Shown here in pieces: positions 1,777-36,661 of a DNA stretch of 39,253 nucleotides. The stretch spans positions 1 to 39,253 of IMG/VR virus record IMGVR_UViG_2920817954_000001; one strand, 5' to 3'. The stretch's first letter is position 1; the number at the start of each line of letters is the position of its first letter. Position numbers and translations under genes: made by a program. The notes under the pieces are model-generated. The model was not told the origin of the DNA. It did no database searches and worked only from the letters and a program-made list of their open reading frames with translations. This stretch comes from a virus.

Positions 1777-3224
1777 TGCCCCTTGTTGAGTTTGTCGGAC
1801 AGTCCGTACAGGACAGCGGCAACATAGCCATTAACCCCGGCAGGCTGGTGAATTGCTACCGGGAGCTTGTTGTGGGGCAGGGGCGTAGCCAATACGTGCT
1901 GCAATCCGTTCTGGGCATGGATCTGCTGTCAGACCTTGGCGCGGCGACTGTTCGCGCAATGGGTATCGGCAACAGCAAGAACTGGGTTGCGGGCGACGGG
2001 AAACTGTTTGAAGCCGCCGGAGACGGTACGCTAACGCAGCGCGCTGTTGTGGCAGATGATGCAGTCACGACCATTGAGGGCAATGAAGGCGATGTGACGG
2101 TCGTTTCCGGGACTGCCTATTACCTGTGGAACGGCTCCACACTTTCTCAGCCCACAACAAAGACATTCACAGACGTTCTCAGCCATTTCTACATCGGCGG
2201 ATATACCGTCATTCTGGAGGATGGCGGCAAACGATTTCAGTGGTCTGCGATTGGTGATGCAAGCTCGCTGGATGCTCTGGATTTTGCTTCTGCAGATCAG
2301 GTTGACGGCAATCTGGTCCGTGGTTTTGAAGTCCAGGGGCAGGCTGTCCTGATGAGTGAGCGCCACAGCGAACTGTGGGCGGTTACCGCAGCAACTGACA
2401 GCGCAGAGGTGTTTCAGTTTACCACAAGCTGGAACCGTGGGCTTAAGGCGCACAACCTGGCAGTGAAGTTTGATGACAGCCTGTTCTGGGTGGGGGACGA
2501 CAACAACGTTTACGTAGGGTTTGGGCCGGGTGCGGTTGATGTCACAACCCCGGCAGTAAACACATCGCTTGAACAAAATACCGCAACACATTGTTTTTAC
2601 TATGAAGATCGCGGTCACAAGTTCTGCGTGCTGCGATTCAGTGACCGCGCTGCATGGGTCTATGACGTTAAGATGCAGGAATGGCACGAGCGCGCAGAAG
2701 GAGCAGGCGATGGTGCATGGCGGGCGGTTGCGTCGATCAAGGGCGATACCTGGCAGGTCGGCAACACTGTGGGCGAGATTTACAGCCTGTCCAACACGAA
2801 CAAGGATCTGAATGGCCTTCTGCGCAGGACCGCAACGTCCCGGCCTGTTTACACTGGCGACAAATTCCGGGTGGTCAAGCTCGAACTGAGCGCTCGCGTC
2901 GGGGAAAACACCCTGAGCGAGGCAACGGACTTTGGTCTGGACGCTGGCGAAGGGGATATTCTGGACGCAGGCGGCGGGGAAGGCCTGAAACTTGACGCTA
3001 TCCCGGCTGGGGAGCGCGCAGCAACGGTCAACCTGTTTGTTTCACGTGATGGCGGCAGAACATGGACAGATGCGAAGCCGCGCTCTCTGGGCCTTGCTGG
3101 CGATTATGACCAGCGCACGGTGTGGCGCGCGTTGGGGCAGGCACACCAGTTTGCGGTGAGAGTGCAGGTTTCTGAGCCCGCTGATTACCAGATCAACACA
3201 ACAGCCGTTCTGGAGGTCGCATGA
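1776..3224 (+). CDS. virion protein, possibly P22 gp10-like DNA-stabilisation/tail hub protein
   Basis: 482 aa, translationally coupled. Size and position after capsid and adaptor resemble the P22 gp4/gp10 order. No motif-level proof. Confidence 0.6.
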   Translation: MPLVEFVGQSVQDSGNIAINPGRLVNCYRELVVGQGRSQYVLQSVLGMDLLSDLGAATVRAMGIGNSKNWVAGDGKLFEAAGDGTLTQRAVVADDAVTTIEGNEGDVTVVSGTAYYLWNGSTLSQPTTKTFTDVLSHFYIGGYTVILEDGGKRFQWSAIGDASSLDALDFASADQVDGNLVRGFEVQGQAVLMSERHSELWAVTAATDSAEVFQFTTSWNRGLKAHNLAVKFDDSLFWVGDDNNVYVGFGPGAVDVTTPAVNTSLEQNTATHCFYYEDRGHKFCVLRFSDRAAWVYDVKMQEWHERAEGAGDGAWRAVASIKGDTWQVGNTVGEIYSLSNTNKDLNGLLRRTATSRPVYTGDKFRVVKLELSARVGENTLSEATDFGLDAGEGDILDAGGGEGLKLDAIPAGERAATVNLFVSRDGGRTWTDAKPRSLGLAGDYDQRTVWRALGQAHQFAVRVQVSEPADYQINTTAVLEVA

Positions 3225-3361
3225 GTATTCCTCCCCTTTCCAGGTCTCTTCCGATTACGGACAGCGACGGCAAGCCCAGCATGGATCTGCTGCGGTATGC
3301 CCGCGAACTGGAGCGCAAACTAGCAGAATATGAAGCCCGTCTTGCGGCGGGTGGTCTTTGA
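3221..3361 (+). CDS. hypothetical small coiled-coil protein (46 aa)
   Basis: ATGA overlap with the upstream stop and a GGAGG RBS. Translation MSIPPLSRSLPITDSDGKPSMDLLRYARELERKLAEYEARLAAGGL. Confidence 0.5.
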   Translation: MSIPPLSRSLPITDSDGKPSMDLLRYARELERKLAEYEARLAAGGL

Positions 3362-32738: not shown

Positions 32739-33097
32739 CCCGCCGTTTCGACACATGGGAGCAGATGGAGGCCTGCCACGCAGAGGAACGCATGGCGCTG
32801 GCCAACAGGCTTTCCGTGCAGGCTTACCGCAATGGCGTGGCTGGAAACGAATTTGAGTCAGTGGGCAAGACGAAGCTGGACCTGATTGTTGAAAGCACAT
32901 GCAAATCTCACGGCATCAATTACACGGATTTGGTCGGCAACTGCCGTTTTCGCCGGTTCACCGTAGCCCGAAATGAGGCGTACTACATCGCTCAAAAAGC
33001 TGGGTTTTCACTCGCAGAAATCGGGAGTGCGTTTGGTGGACGGGATCACGCAACCATCAGGAGCGGCATCCGCAGGCATGAGGAGACAGTCCAGTGA
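32735..33097 (+). CDS. DnaA domain IV-like HTH protein
   Basis: RFTVARNEAYYIAQKAGFSLAEIGSAFGGRDHATIRSGI resembles the DnaA C-terminal DNA-binding domain. The ATG at 32735 is ATGA-coupled. Confidence 0.6.
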   Translation: MTRRFDTWEQMEACHAEERMALANRLSVQAYRNGVAGNEFESVGKTKLDLIVESTCKSHGINYTDLVGNCRFRRFTVARNEAYYIAQKAGFSLAEIGSAFGGRDHATIRSGIRRHEETVQ

Positions 33098-33390
33098 CCC
33101 CACAACAGGAAGCGGAAATGGGCCGCCAGATGCTGGAGATGGTAAGGCAGGAGCGGCATTACAGGAAAGCGTTTCGTCAAAACATCCAGACGGGGCTGAA
33201 GCAAGAATATGTTGCTGATCGTCGCCAGAGGATGCTGGAATTTCTCGGAGAAAACGGCCCGACTGATATTGCTGTACTGCACGAACTTAACGCTCCTGAA
33301 AAAGCACATGACGACGTGAGAAACCTTCAGGCCATGGGCCTCATTCGTCGGGTTTCTCTGGGCGTCTATGCGCTGAGTGAGGCGGAATGA
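33094..33390 (+). CDS. winged-helix protein (98 aa)
   Basis: GTG start (GTGA coupling) with a GAGGAG RBS. LEFLGENGPTDIAVLHELN...MGLIRRV. Confidence 0.5.
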   Translation: MTPQQEAEMGRQMLEMVRQERHYRKAFRQNIQTGLKQEYVADRRQRMLEFLGENGPTDIAVLHELNAPEKAHDDVRNLQAMGLIRRVSLGVYALSEAE

Positions 33391-33950
33391 CCTGGTATCT
33401 GGCATACGTTCAGGGCGGCAAGACCACCAAAGCCGAAGGCGGCGGGGAAAAGATCCGCAAAGAGTTCTACGTTCAGCAGGAACTGGATGACATGGGCGTG
33501 ACCAATTACCTGCCCCGGCACATCGAGTTTAAGCGGGTCGGCAAGAAGCGCTACGCAGAGCCGTTCGAGAACCCCCTGCTGCCGAATTACATATTCGTGG
33601 AGACGCCCGCAGAGCGCTTTCTGGAAGTTTTGGGCGTCAAGTACCTTCCGGGGCCTCTGATGGCACTCAGCAGGGCGGACGTTGCCGCTCTGGGCACATT
33701 CCGGGCCGAAGTGAACGAGCAATACGCCAAGGCGAGGCGCGCGGCGGAAAACAGGGAGGCAATCGCGGAGTATATCCGGGGGCAGAAGCTGGAGGTCATG
33801 GACAGCCGGTTTGCGGGCAGTGTTCTGAGGTTCCGGCGCATGGTACAGCGCGCCCATGACATGTATCCGAAGGTAGAGGCGTCCATAGAAATGATGGGGC
33901 GTGAGGTTATTGCGGAACTGGACCCGCTGGATGTGAGGGCTGCGGAGTAG
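33387..33950 (+). CDS. NusG/RfaH-like transcription antitermination factor
   Basis: NGN-like WYLAYV...PLLPNYIFVE and a KOW-like GQKLEVMDSRFAGSVLRF. Last early-right gene, directly before the late promoter. Confidence 0.6.
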   Translation: MTWYLAYVQGGKTTKAEGGGEKIRKEFYVQQELDDMGVTNYLPRHIEFKRVGKKRYAEPFENPLLPNYIFVETPAERFLEVLGVKYLPGPLMALSRADVAALGTFRAEVNEQYAKARRAAENREAIAEYIRGQKLEVMDSRFAGSVLRFRRMVQRAHDMYPKVEASIEMMGREVIAELDPLDVRAAE

Positions 33951-33955
33951 GGGTG

Positions 33956-33984
33956 TTGACTTTTGAACTTTGTTCATTTAGATT
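33956..33984 (+). promoter_or_regulatory. late promoter candidate TTGACT-N17-TAGATT
   Basis: TTGACT at 33956-33961 and TAGATT at 33979-33984, with a 17-nt spacer, starting 6 nt after the NusG-like stop. Confidence 0.6.
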
Positions 33985-34334
33985 CAGGCAAAGCCTGATC
34001 CAGCCCTGCGGCGGTTTGTGGCGGCCACACCCGATAACCATCGGGTGCTACTGCATTTTAGGAGTCTGACATGACCAAAGGTGATGGCGGCACAGCCACG
34101 ATAGAAGGCTACGGCGGATGAGCAAAGAGGGTTACAGAGGCCAACCGCTTTCATGTGGTGTGTCAGGCTAAAGAGAAAATCCTGATGAAGTCAGGAGAAC
34201 GGCACAGACCGTAGGCTTCGGCCCTATCTTTAGTCGGCACCCTTCATGAGCGCGGTGGCGTGGAAATCGGAACTGGTTAAATTCCAGAGCGGACGAGACC
34301 AGCCGCTGTCAAACGACAGGTAGCCGGAGTGCCG

Positions 34335-34481
34335 CCCGGCCCGCGTTCAAGTTATTAAGGCCTAGGGTTGCGGGTTCGAATCCCGTCTGGCAGCGGTGAC
34401 TAAAGGGGCAGACAACTCCTCACCGCTTATCCTGCAGGAAGCCAGTAGCTCAATTGGACAGAGCATAGAGCGCGGACCGGG
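34335..34481 (+). ncRNA. permuted tRNA-like structured RNA element within the late leader
   Basis: Closing helix 34335-48/34468-81 (13 of 14 positions pair). T-arm GCGGG-TTCGAAT-CCCGT at 34370-86. Acceptor-like helix CTGGC/GCCAG at 34387-91/34441-45 with an inserted 8-bp hairpin. D-arm GCTC-AATTGGACA-GAGC at 34448-64. Confidence 0.5.
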
Positions 34482-34638
34482 ACGTGCAGTCAAACCCGGA
34501 GAAATTACAGGGCCGCAAGGTTCCACGTTGTTTCGGCAACACCCCTCAGATCACGGTCTGGGGGCCATCAATTAAACGGGGCTGCCACCCTTCAGTTTGC
34601 GGATCTGGCCAAAACCGCACCCTTTCTCAGGAGTATCT

Positions 34639-34815
34639 ATGCTGACAGCACAGGACGTTGCCTTTTTTGACGACGAACTAACGGCAGCAGAGCTTCACGT
34701 TGTTAATTGCATGGATTCATGGCTGGCAGACGACGCCAACAGCCCCGCAGAACTACTGGAGGCAATGGCTGATTTCATTCAGCGCGTTGTCATAGAAACA
34801 CACACAACACACTAG
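34639..34815 (+). CDS. hypothetical acidic protein, first late gene (58 aa)
   Basis: The ATG at 34639 has an AGGAG RBS and lies inside track ORF 34597..34815. Confidence 0.55.
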   Translation: MLTAQDVAFFDDELTAAELHVVNCMDSWLADDANSPAELLEAMADFIQRVVIETHTTH

Positions 34816-34825
34816 GAGGCAGCAT

Positions 34826-35107
34826 ATGCCTGCACACGTAGCATTCGCAAAGCCGATGGACGGGATCGCGCCGGTCATCTCTGCCATCCCTTCGTCCAGT
34901 GAGCTGGTCGCAGACGGCGGCACGAGCACCGCAACAGCAAAGGCGACAGACGTCGCTGTGGTTGTGGCCACATCAGATGTATACGTGGCTTTCGGCACAA
35001 CTCCCGGCACACCTTCAGCAACAAACGGCCATCGCATCCCGTCAGGCGCTGTTCAGACGTTCGGCAGCCTTGACGCCGGGTTCAAGATGGCAGTCGCGGC
35101 TGTTTAA
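34826..35107 (+). CDS. hypothetical protein (93 aa, Ala/Thr/Val-rich)
   Basis: Strong RBS TAGGAGG. Confidence 0.6.
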   Translation: MPAHVAFAKPMDGIAPVISAIPSSSELVADGGTSTATAKATDVAVVVATSDVYVAFGTTPGTPSATNGHRIPSGAVQTFGSLDAGFKMAVAAV

Positions 35108-35130
35108 AAACAAAACGTTAGGCGGCATTA

Positions 35131-35412
35131 ATGGCAGGTAGAAAAGGCGAGAAATTCTGGGCTGATGCTGTAAAGCGCGCAGTGCACCGCAGGCTTGACG
35201 GTGATGACGACAACCCGCAAAAGCTTGAGCTTATCGCGGACGCTCTCGTCGACGCTGCAATGGATGGAGATATTCAAGCAGTAAAGGAAATCGGGGACAG
35301 GCTGGACGGCAAGGCGGTCTCCAGAAATGAGCACTCCGGCCCTGGTGGCGGGGACATTCCCCACAAGCTGACTGTGGAAACAACGCTTGTTGCACCAAAA
35401 GGTAAGGCGTGA
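35131..35412 (+). CDS. terS: small terminase subunit candidate
   Basis: 93 aa, immediately upstream of and overlapping the large terminase. The AMDGDIQAVKEIGDRLDGK motif is recalled from small-terminase-like proteins. Confidence 0.5.
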   Translation: MAGRKGEKFWADAVKRAVHRRLDGDDDNPQKLELIADALVDAAMDGDIQAVKEIGDRLDGKAVSRNEHSGPGGGDIPHKLTVETTLVAPKGKA

Positions 35413-36661
35413 GGTAGCAGAGGCTTTCCGGCCTCTCACATTACCAGCAAGGTACAAGGGCGCTCACGGCGGCAGGGGTTCCGGCAAATCATGGTTTCTT
35501 GCGGATGAAGCGGTTTTTGCGCTGTTGAACGGGAAGGACGTTGTTTGTGTCCGTGAGGTTCAGAACTCGATTGCTGACAGCGTTAAGCGCCTCATGGAGA
35601 ACCGCATAGCGCATTATGGACTACAGGCTCTTTTCGACATCACGGAAAAGGAAATCAGGTGCCCGACAGCGGGCAGTTACGCAATCTTCCGGGGGATGCA
35701 GAACCACACAGCCGCAAGCGTCAAGTCCCTTGAGGATTTCGACGTTGCCTGGTGGGAAGAAGCGCAAACAGCCAGCCAGAAGTCTCTGGACCTGCTGATA
35801 CCGACAATCCGTGCGCCTGGATCGGAGCTCTGGTTTGGCTGGAACCCTGAAAACGAAGATGACCCGATAGATGTATTCCTTCGTAAGAACCCGCCGGAGA
35901 GCGCGGTAGTTGTAGAGGTTAACTGGGACGATAACCCGTGGTTCCCCGACGAACTGCGGGAGGATCTGGAGCGCGACAGGCGTCGTGACCCGGATAAATA
36001 CGAGCACATCTGGAACGGGGCATACAGAGAGGCATCTGAGGCCCGCGTATTCCGGAACTGGCGTATTGGTGAGATTGAGCCGCCTGAAAACGTTGTGTGG
36101 TTCTATGGCGTGGACTGGGGTTTTTCAAACGACCCGGCGGCAGGGGTGAGGTTTTGTTTCCCCGACCCGGAAACGCTGTACGTCAGGAACGAAGTTTACG
36201 AGCTGGGCCTGCCGATGGAAGCGCACCCCGCTTTCCTCGCTGAATTGCCTGGCTCTACGCAATGGCCCATGCGCGCAGACAATGCCCGGCCAGAGATAAT
36301 TGACTACTGCAGACGCCACGGGTTCCCGAAGATACGTGCGGCGAAGAAGGGCAAGGGTTCGGTAGAGGACGGGGTGAGCTTCATTCAGTCCTTTGACGTT
36401 GTTGTCCACCCGGAGTGTGGAAACACGCAGAGAGAATTTCAGCGCTACGCATACAAGACCGATGCGCGTACCGGGGAAATCCTGCCGGTTATCGAAGACA
36501 AGAACAATCACGCCATAGACGCCCTGCGTTACGGCTGTGAAGGCCTGCACCGCAAAGGCAAGCTCATTGAGGCAATCACAACCCCGTCAAAGCGCCCACC
36601 ACAGGGCCATGACTATGGGTTTGACGAGGATGACGAGGAAGATTCATGGAAAGTGGCCTAG
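35387..36661 (+). CDS. terL: large terminase subunit
   Basis: Walker A GGRGSGKS near the N-terminus and a nuclease-like C-terminal half. Only TTG 35387 or CTG 35372 can serve as the start. Confidence 0.85.
   Translation: MLHQKVRREVAEAFRPLTLPARYKGAHGGRGSGKSWFLADEAVFALLNGKDVVCVREVQNSIADSVKRLMENRIAHYGLQALFDITEKEIRCPTAGSYAIFRGMQNHTAASVKSLEDFDVAWWEEAQTASQKSLDLLIPTIRAPGSELWFGWNPENEDDPIDVFLRKNPPESAVVVEVNWDDNPWFPDELREDLERDRRRDPDKYEHIWNGAYREASEARVFRNWRIGEIEPPENVVWFYGVDWGFSNDPAAGVRFCFPDPETLYVRNEVYELGLPMEAHPAFLAELPGSTQWPMRADNARPEIIDYCRRHGFPKIRAAKKGKGSVEDGVSFIQSFDVVVHPECGNTQREFQRYAYKTDARTGEILPVIEDKNNHAIDALRYGCEGLHRKGKLIEAITTPSKRPPQGHDYGFDEDDEEDSWKVA

Follow-up and report, generated by a model that had tools for sequence, protein, structure and literature searches.

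The window analyzed here, by which we mean the whole stretch of DNA under study, is the complete IMG/VR virus record IMGVR_UViG_2920817954_000001, 39,253 bp in length with direct terminal repeats. The subject of this work is its segment 33951-34638, which is located between a co-directional block of early genes and the packaging genes and most likely forms the 5' leader of a late operon for packaging and virion genes in a temperate marine phage of the Rhodobacteraceae. The early block includes a replication initiator, a DnaA-C-like protein, small open reading frames (ORFs) and, as the last gene of this early-right (replication) operon, a gene for a NusG paralog at 33387-33950. On the packaging side there are an ORF of 58 amino acids (aa) starting at 34639, two ORFs of 93 aa and the large terminase gene at 35387-36661 (Pfam Terminase_3, 1.1e-29). 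Within the leader we distinguish a module A that includes the promoter (33956-34058), a structured module B (34130-34351) and a transfer RNA (tRNA)-like domain, module C (34341-34475).

The original prediction, drawn from the letters of the window, described this segment as an ORF-free, hairpin-dense late leader placed after a NusG/RfaH-like gene. The interval 33978-34596 (619 nucleotides (nt) with no ORF of at least 60 aa on either strand) exceeds every other such gap in the window, the second-longest measuring 261 nt at the tRNA array, and the small ORFs inside the leader matched no Pfam or PHROG family. ARAGORN, and Rfam at the gathering threshold, returned nothing in 33951-34638 (no tRNA and no transfer-messenger RNA, tmRNA), and on this result we rejected a tmRNA, a permuted tmRNA or a tRNA gene in the leader. 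The hairpins at 33984-98, 34028-47, 34306-19 and 34323-40 and the palindrome at 34018-28 are all where they had been placed, but their density does not exceed chance on its own. The fold z-scores of the leader (-2.4 for the + strand and -3.0 for the - strand, from only 20 shuffles) are only modestly better than those of the shuffles, so hairpin density alone proves little.

We compared the locus with about 40 related phage and prophage loci of the Rhodobacteraceae (designated by L numbers), which were reached through protein homologues; the DNA 3' of the paralog gene was compared in about 33 distinct loci. A blastn search with the leader against GenBank phages gave no match; scans of viral contigs, one with a single protein and one with an exact 30-mer, gave no relatives. 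Among the related loci, the proposed order of factor gene, promoter, structured leader and late genes is real and is conserved across phages whose paralogs are only 30-57% identical, and alignment of the leaders showed that modules A and B are conserved.

Pfam, PHROG, profile and structure comparisons agree in assigning a NusG fold to the product of 33387-33950 (+ strand), with a predicted NGN domain, long helix and KOW barrel, so that the earlier NusG/RfaH-like label was correct. The product scored 24.1 bits with Pfam NusG (cut-off 22.2) and matched phrog_6386, 'transcription antiterminator', at 3.7e-7. A profile built from 17 homologues matched the NusG structure 2lq8_A in the PDB over residues 23-179 (E=7.8e-6), covering both the NGN and KOW domains. 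The AlphaFold2 model (predicted local distance difference test score, pLDDT, 86) contains an NGN domain, a long helix at 96-121 and a KOW domain, and its top Foldseek matches in the PDB were NusG and RfaH at ops (8phk_P, E=4e-7). For comparison with RfaH, the KOW domain is predicted as a beta-barrel, a single predicted state that is mute on fold switching. Homologues with 94% down to 30% identity are found in marine metagenomes, IMG/VR contigs and prophages of Leisingera, Phaeobacter and Pseudophaeobacter; among the sampled genomes of the host family, the profile was positive in 2 of 401, so this phage group is rare. A second lineage of NusG paralogs, in L221 and L223 (Pfam NusG 31.2 bits, phrog_6386 1.2e-8), is followed by a promoter, a module-A-like end and module B. 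The name 'antiterminator' is already given to such proteins by PHROGs, and what is new here is the RNA elements, which are outside Rfam.

The late promoter and module A

The promoter proposed in the original prediction, TTGACT-N17-TAGATT at 33956-33984 (+ strand), was confirmed by a consensus scan (9/12) and begins 6 nt past the stop codon of the paralog gene. It is the sole promoter-like site in 33000-35500, where about one is expected by chance, and we infer that it is a sigma-70-type late promoter. Transcription likely starts near 33991, about 7 nt 3' of the -10 hexamer, and this start falls within the hairpin at 33984-98. In L006 the corresponding sequence does not form a hairpin, and the hairpin of the window is, contrary to the earlier proposal, unlikely to be an RNA element. 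In about 20 related loci a -35/-10 pair occupies the equal place, mostly with CTTGAY and an extended -10 of the form TGnTATnnT, and the common form in loci with module A is CTTGAY-N17 followed by this extended -10.

About two thirds of the roughly 33 loci share the same layout after the stop codon, namely the promoter, hairpin 1, a GC-rich hairpin 2 and UGCURCUGCAWU, and we refer to this layout as module A. In the window the parts that follow the promoter lie at 33999-34015, 34028-34047 and 34046-34058, with UGCUACUGCAUU after hairpin 2. Hairpin 1 (33999-34015, + strand) consists of UCC, a bulged A and GCC, a CUGC loop, and GGC-GGU, as defined by a 17-locus alignment and a covariance model; the family consensus is GC-ACC-[A/U]-GSN...NSC-GGU-C. 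The distance from the end of the -10 hexamer to hairpin 1 is 12-13 nt in nearly all loci. In the alignment (A3, 17 loci), 97% of the cells are paired, compared with 11-55% in slid controls, and two pairs covary (CG/GC 10:7 and CG/AU 11:6). Comparison with the related loci defines hairpin 2 (34028-34058 with its tail, + strand) as CACCCGAU-AACC-AUCGGGUG, with the conserved tail UGCUACUGCAUUU behind it. A stable, GC-rich hairpin is found at this site in all related loci, each time with a different sequence; the loop is UGRAAYAGN in many loci and the tail UGCURCUGCAWU in most. Hairpin 2 is a candidate pause or termination barrier, and a U-tract directly 3' of its stem is found only in L008 and L147.

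Module A occurs once per phage, always just 3' of the NusG-paralog gene, and by the searches described here the two are linked one-to-one. A covariance model of the module (R1) gave exactly one match per paralog locus, with 26-75 bits, in the 590 kb searched, including matches in two loci that were not used for training (L145 and L178); the single match in the window is at 33985-34062 with 49.4 bits. More than 115 viral contigs contain the 16-mer CCAGCCCWGCGGCGGT, for the most part within genes, and the only three of these contigs that have it in a promoter context (L021, L051 and L067) all carry a NusG paralog just upstream. In control loci holding only this 16-mer, R1 gave no match above 20 bits. 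A D12-methyl motif over module A (17 bits, minus strand) was rejected as a chance match, and it is absent from seven other loci with module A.

Module B of the leader

Module B (34130-34351, + strand) is a conserved structured leader RNA defined by a helix alignment of 11 sequences. It is composed of a small hairpin P1 (34130-34146), strand X (34144-34164), which pairs with strand Y and is separated from it by a variable apical region, strand Y (34236-34256, with GAGCGCGG at 34248-55), a variable insert 3' of Y, and element Z (CCGCGUUC, 34341-48), all on the + strand. The pieces X, Y and Z were common to seven loci at first and to twelve finally. The motif of strand X is RCCGCUUUC..GYGG, its partner Y ends in GAGCGCGG, and Z reads CCGCGYUCA. 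For the alignment, strands X and Y were each trimmed by hand to a 21-mer without gaps, with the invariant CCGC and GAGCGCGG as anchors. They form a long irregular helix in which 95.5% of the cells pair, against 37-53% in slid controls, with compensatory change at 10 of the 18 pairs (36 cells) and one invariant U.G pair. The compensatory changes and the strand-specific G.U pairs suggest that module B is an RNA of the + strand. An alternative helix between Y and Z, with 89% of the cells pairing and no covariation, is neither supported nor contradicted by covariation. The predicted minimum-energy fold of 34126-34486 (361 nt) contains the X:Y hairpin together with the clamp and cloverleaf of module C, and forcing Y:Z costs 15.5 kcal/mol. 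Neither module A nor module B had a match in Rfam (Rfam 15) in the window or in 28 related loci, which bears out the earlier statement that the RNA part has no obvious described counterpart. The hairpins at 34306-19 and 34323-40, offered as elements of the leader, both fall in the variable insert.

We also looked for copies of the module by simple patterns. The pattern CCGCTTTCN{58,88}GAGCGCGG was about as frequent in the 401 genomes as its reversed control and hence is unspecific; one of its matches, L245, is a real copy. GAGCGCGG itself is present 8 times in the window where 3 copies are expected, a mild enrichment that is reached by 3 of 100 shuffles.

The genomic contexts of module B are diverse. 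The terminase genes behind it belong to unrelated types: Terminase_3 in the window, Terminase_2 with Terminase_6N in L015 (a Phaeobacter prophage), and Terminase_6C in L012. Its upstream neighbors vary as well. In L221 and L223 it comes after the distant second NusG-paralog lineage; in L218 and L224 a promoter and an intrinsic terminator lie before it, preceded by the gene for a protein that does not resemble NusG; and in L245 it comes after a lysis cassette. The product of this upstream gene in L218 and L224 is about 200 aa long and may be a late regulator of another type. The promoter of these loci, TTGACT-17-TATGAT, lies about 90 nt upstream of module B, and a canonical intrinsic terminator (GGCAUGGCUGCGAA...UUCGCACCAUGUC with U6) comes immediately after it. 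In L217 (IMG/VR contig 3300038701_001073, 1330-1800), module B is present twice in tandem, 3' of an HNH-type ORF inserted after the NusG paralog. A further observation concerns the sequence 3' of element Z in L015, L135, L142, L217 and L221-L223, where a stretch of about 100 nt (CACCGG..CCGGYCAGARCC..CAUGCGC..AACAGCA.GUG..GGGG) is conserved; it is absent from the window and may be a third leader module.

Module B is always found shortly upstream of packaging genes, and the P1 hairpin of the relatives contains GGCGGGGAAAG, which presumably resembles the P2-type cos sequence. Both observations would fit a DNA packaging signal, such as a pac or cos site or a site for terminase binding. We consider this very improbable, since one and the same module stands before unrelated terminase types, the compensatory changes and strand-specific G.U pairs (one U.G being invariant) fit RNA and not duplex DNA, and the GGCGGGGAAAG piece is missing from the window.

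The presence of module B behind other regulators suggests that it probably acts on the late mRNA itself and is not the site of the factor, and thus that it probably affects the stability, processing or translation of that mRNA. A broader alternative is that all of these RNA elements are regulators independent of the paralog, which would act elsewhere or generally; module A would then be a 5' pair of stem-loops that stabilizes or attenuates the transcript, and module B a bistable leader (X:Y or Y:Z), or the source of a small RNA, acting on late mRNA stability or translation. This alternative is favored by the copies of module B that follow a lysis cassette (L245) or a regulator other than NusG that has a terminator of its own (L218/L224), and by the ability of Y to pair with X or with Z. 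There is also precedent in lambdoid phages, where short transcripts from the constitutive late promoter act as small RNAs (lambda 6S RNA, StxS). We regard it as possible but fairly unlikely, because module A was never found without the NusG paralog in the sequence searched and lies at a fixed distance from the promoter, and because Y:Z shows no covariation and is predicted to be less stable than X:Y in the window by the energy given above.

The tRNA-like domain and the variable parts of the leader

Module C (34341-34475, + strand) is a putative circularly permuted tRNA-like domain, as judged from a sub-threshold match to the bacterial Y RNA family YrlA and from the predicted fold. A clamp of 8-14 bp joins CCGCGUUC (34341-48) to GAGCGCGG (34468-75) and encloses, in order, a T-arm (GCGGG-UUCGAAU-CCCGU, 34370-86), a closed acceptor stem of 5 bp directly after it (CUGGC at 34387-91 with GCCAG at 34441-45), U8-A9 (34446-47) and a D-arm (GCUC-AAUUGGACA-GAGC, 34448-64). 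The acceptor stem holds an insert of 49 nt that includes a 7-bp hairpin (34393-34426). As read from the sequence, the elbow nucleotides are complete (G18 G19 and the UUCGAAU T-loop), no anticodon arm remains, and the acceptor stem is flush against the T and D stems. This geometry suggests a real permuted tRNA-like fold, and the minimum-energy fold predicted for 34126-34486 includes the cloverleaf. Besides YrlA, tRNA-Sec gave 18 bits (E=1.4). In searches for homologues of module C, a viral pattern scan gave one unrelated match and a metagenome scan gave 37 matches, all of them tandem tRNA genes.

A tRNA or tRNA-like element is present in three leaders with module B. Besides the window, L154 (a prophage of Leisingera sp. 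SS27) has a true tRNA-Met(CAT) at 3186-3261 between modules A and B, and L245 (G073:C101, a Rhodobacteraceae genome) has, in its module B copy at 2510-2690, an anticodon-less tRNA-like element that scores 50.1 bits with Rfam tRNA, was missed by ARAGORN and has an anticodon loop of about 1-2 nt. This last element is nested exactly between Y (GAGCGCGG) and Z (CCGCGCUC), so that Y:Z extends its acceptor stem there. Three topologies of tRNA elements in one leader family hint at a function, although the sample is small. Two side observations belong here. In the window, ACCGCTTATCCTGCAGG at 34421-34437 resembles the strand X consensus RCCGCTTTCCTGCGG and CATAGAGCGCGG at 34465-34475 resembles strand Y. 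This raises the possibility that the tRNA-like domain lies within a second, degenerate module B; a helix X':Y' between these two pieces does not form. In L171, positions 1501-1567 (G042:C7:145440-145506) hold an apparent permuted tRNA-like element with a T-arm, a closed acceptor stem, a D-arm and a UUU anticodon-like arm that is not called by ARAGORN.

YrlA is the best Rfam match of module C (E=1.1e-5) and has the same order of T-arm, closed acceptor stem and D-arm, with a long clamp helix in place of the 'anticodon stem'. One could accordingly read the domain as a Y RNA that works with Rsr, the Ro60 orthologue, and true YrlA arrays do lie next to TROVE genes in 14 of 301 host-family genomes. 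We nevertheless find this reading hardly credible and rejected YrlA as the family of module C. The match reaches 35 bits against a gathering threshold of 69 and covers only positions 23-89 of 114, the Ro-binding stem being unmatched, and the element is embedded in an mRNA leader and not in a separate small gene. In addition, the TROVE gene (rsr) is absent from the phage and from all five Leisingera hosts of related prophages, and it was found in only 2-3 of 151 genomes of the family. Bona fide YrlA arrays (74-83 bits) beside TROVE/Rsr genes are exemplified by G118:C5:22887-24330 and G089:C12:44422-45616.

Other parts of the leader differ among close relatives, and the upstream ORF (uORF) and module C are specific to the window. 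The 16-codon uORF at 34071-34121 (+ strand) is present behind AGGAG as had been described. In L004, whose NusG paralog is 94% identical, an ORF of about 54 codons occupies its place, and the uORF keeps the Shine-Dalgarno and start region and the last codons of that ORF (MTK..EGY). The uORF is consequently a remnant and not a conserved gene, and L006 and L008 have unrelated short ORFs at this site. The L004 leader is identical to that of the window in the promoter and hairpin 1 and then diverges; it lacks the tRNA-like domain and carries an insert of 90 nt ahead of the ribosome-binding site (RBS). The space between paralog and terminase is occupied by 2.6 kb of small genes in L008, a toxin-antitoxin pair in L012 and the tRNA in L154. 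These varied inserts show that the leader is an insertion hot spot between conserved modules. The distal leader (34476-34638, + strand) has three local hairpins in the predicted folds and a 35-nt block in common with L004 (blastn: 34584-34618 100% identical, 34611 onward 95%), and it ends with the RBS AGGAG at 34629-33 and the ATG at 34639, both as described earlier. The ORF that begins there (34639-34815, + strand, 58 aa, from the ORF list) is taken as the first late ORF, with small ORFs and then the terminase 3' of it, and is kept in L004.

Such mosaicism is what one would expect if the leader, promoter aside, were functionless debris of recombination in an insertion hot spot, made up of moron ORFs and tRNA genes that have decayed. 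The remnant uORF and the lack of relatives of module C agree with this explanation, as do partial YrlA scores of 28-37 bits, which are typical of tandem tRNA genes. It is improbable in our judgment, since modules A and B are conserved with compensatory changes in distant phages and since module C shows no trace of an anticodon arm while its T- and D-arms are perfect, its closed acceptor stem of 5 bp is flush and its clamp is 8-14 bp long, a pattern that uniform decay would not yield.

A putative late-gene antitermination cassette

Taken together, we interpret the locus as a late-gene antitermination cassette in which a phage NusG paralog works with new RNA elements, in a manner comparable to lambda Q at PR' or RfaH at ops. 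Our confidence in this interpretation is moderate and applies to the cassette as a whole; each mechanistic step, taken by itself, is held with less. Of the dedicated late antitermination and processing unit envisaged in the original prediction, the order and conservation of the cassette stood, while the details (the ops sites, the uORF and several hairpins) did not.

According to this interpretation, the last gene of the early operon would supply the NusG paralog, and transcripts from the late promoter, six bases past its stop, would start with module A, that is, with the bulged hairpin (about +8 to +25), which keeps a rigid distance from the -10, followed by hairpin 2 and UGCUACUGCAUU. The NusG paralog would recognize module A, either through the non-template DNA or through the nascent RNA hairpin, and load onto RNA polymerase. 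The fixed promoter distance recalls Q at PR', the CGGU hairpin recalls ops and a nascent-RNA target would recall LoaP. The module could also be the first pause or termination barrier, with hairpin 2 being passed by the modified polymerase, which would then cross about 650 nt of untranslated leader, an obvious target of Rho, and reach the late genes shielded from Rho. Module B would act on the RNA itself. Element Z would clamp the tRNA-like domain, whose stack of T-arm and acceptor stem might, hypothetically, be a substrate of RNase P or another tRNA enzyme, and cleavage there would separate the leader from the late mRNA. The hairpins with U-tracts in L147 and L008 and the intrinsic terminator just after the promoter in L218 speak for the antitermination reading.

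Several points weigh against it. Module A adjoins the paralog gene, so that their co-occurrence could reflect linkage and not interaction, and about one third of the paralog loci have variants of module A or no recognizable module A. The covariation in hairpin 1 is based on few independent events. The window itself has a divergent subtype of the module, with UCCAG for CACCWG and without the UGRAAYAGN loop, and no U-tract follows its hairpin 2 directly, so there is no evident terminator in this phage. For the processing steps, module C is a single sequence without a known relative, its fold is without covariation and its YrlA score is no higher than those of tandem tRNA genes.

A more elaborate version would make module B and the tRNA mimics a new late-leader riboregulator. 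Folding of the mimic would be controlled by a helix that switches partners (Y with X or Z, Z with Y or Y'), the mimic would recruit RNase P or a factor that binds the tRNA elbow to cut or activate the late mRNA, and all of this would be coupled to antitermination by the NusG paralog at the promoter-locked hairpin. We consider this version doubtful.

The comparison with RfaH and its ops element is instructive at the level of detail. The RfaH/ops system and the LoaP leader hairpin share with our locus an NGN and KOW paralog paired with a conserved leader element of one long, horizontally mobile operon, and RfaH/ops also shares a small CGGU hairpin near the transcript start and a long untranslated leader. 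Here, however, the factor is encoded by the phage immediately upstream of the target promoter, the 12-nt ops consensus GGCGGTAGCGTG is not found in the leader, and the element is a bulged hairpin of 17-25 nt at a fixed distance from the promoter, longer than an ops-type hairpin within the transcription bubble could be. Two ops-like 12-mers had been proposed and both are at their positions, but the resemblance is at chance level, the whole window containing 51 matches with 3 mismatches or fewer where 45 are expected, and three with 2 or fewer. The favored one, CGCGGTGGCGTG at 34251-62, is the best ops match in the leader (10/12), but it lies inside strand Y of the conserved helix, where the relatives retain GAGCGCGG and not the ops-like bases. 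The weaker one, at 34010-21, coincides in part with the 3' half of hairpin 1, a conserved piece in which GGCGGT at 34010-15 forms one strand of the stem and is the only ops-related part that is conserved; CGGU is all that it has in common with ops.

The likeness to lambda Q, PR', qut and tR' is in the architecture. In lambda, Q holds the same slot as the NusG paralog here, as the last early gene, the late promoter follows directly with a rigidly spaced promoter-proximal cis element, and a non-coding leader precedes the late genes, with tRNA genes in some lambdoid leaders; the terminators in the leaders of some of our relatives are a further parallel. The differences are that the protein here is unrelated to Q and has a NusG fold, that no terminator is evident in the leader of the window and that an extra 220 nt of conserved structured RNA is present. 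The put sites of HK022, EAR and the boxB of lambdoid nut sites are also start-proximal stem-loops with conserved loops in phage operon leaders (UGRAAYAGN in many of our relatives), but here there is no sequence or Rfam match and a dedicated protein factor is encoded beside the site. The position of module B 3' of the terminator in L218 does not fit a put-type element.

Most of what is understood about late switching in temperate phages comes from lambda Q, and most of what is understood about specialized NusG paralogs from RfaH/ops and LoaP; no paper on a late switch based on a phage NusG paralog was found in the literature searched. The cassette described here would join these two themes, with a phage-borne NusG paralog and a promoter-locked hairpin in marine Rhodobacteraceae phages (Leisingera, Phaeobacter and metagenomic), and offers a compact, defined candidate cis site for a NusG paralog outside the Enterobacteria. 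Module B adds a leader RNA family that is supported by covariation, is absent from Rfam and repeatedly hosts inserts of tRNAs or tRNA mimics in three topologies, and these tRNA-bearing leaders may bear on how phages process or protect their long late transcripts.

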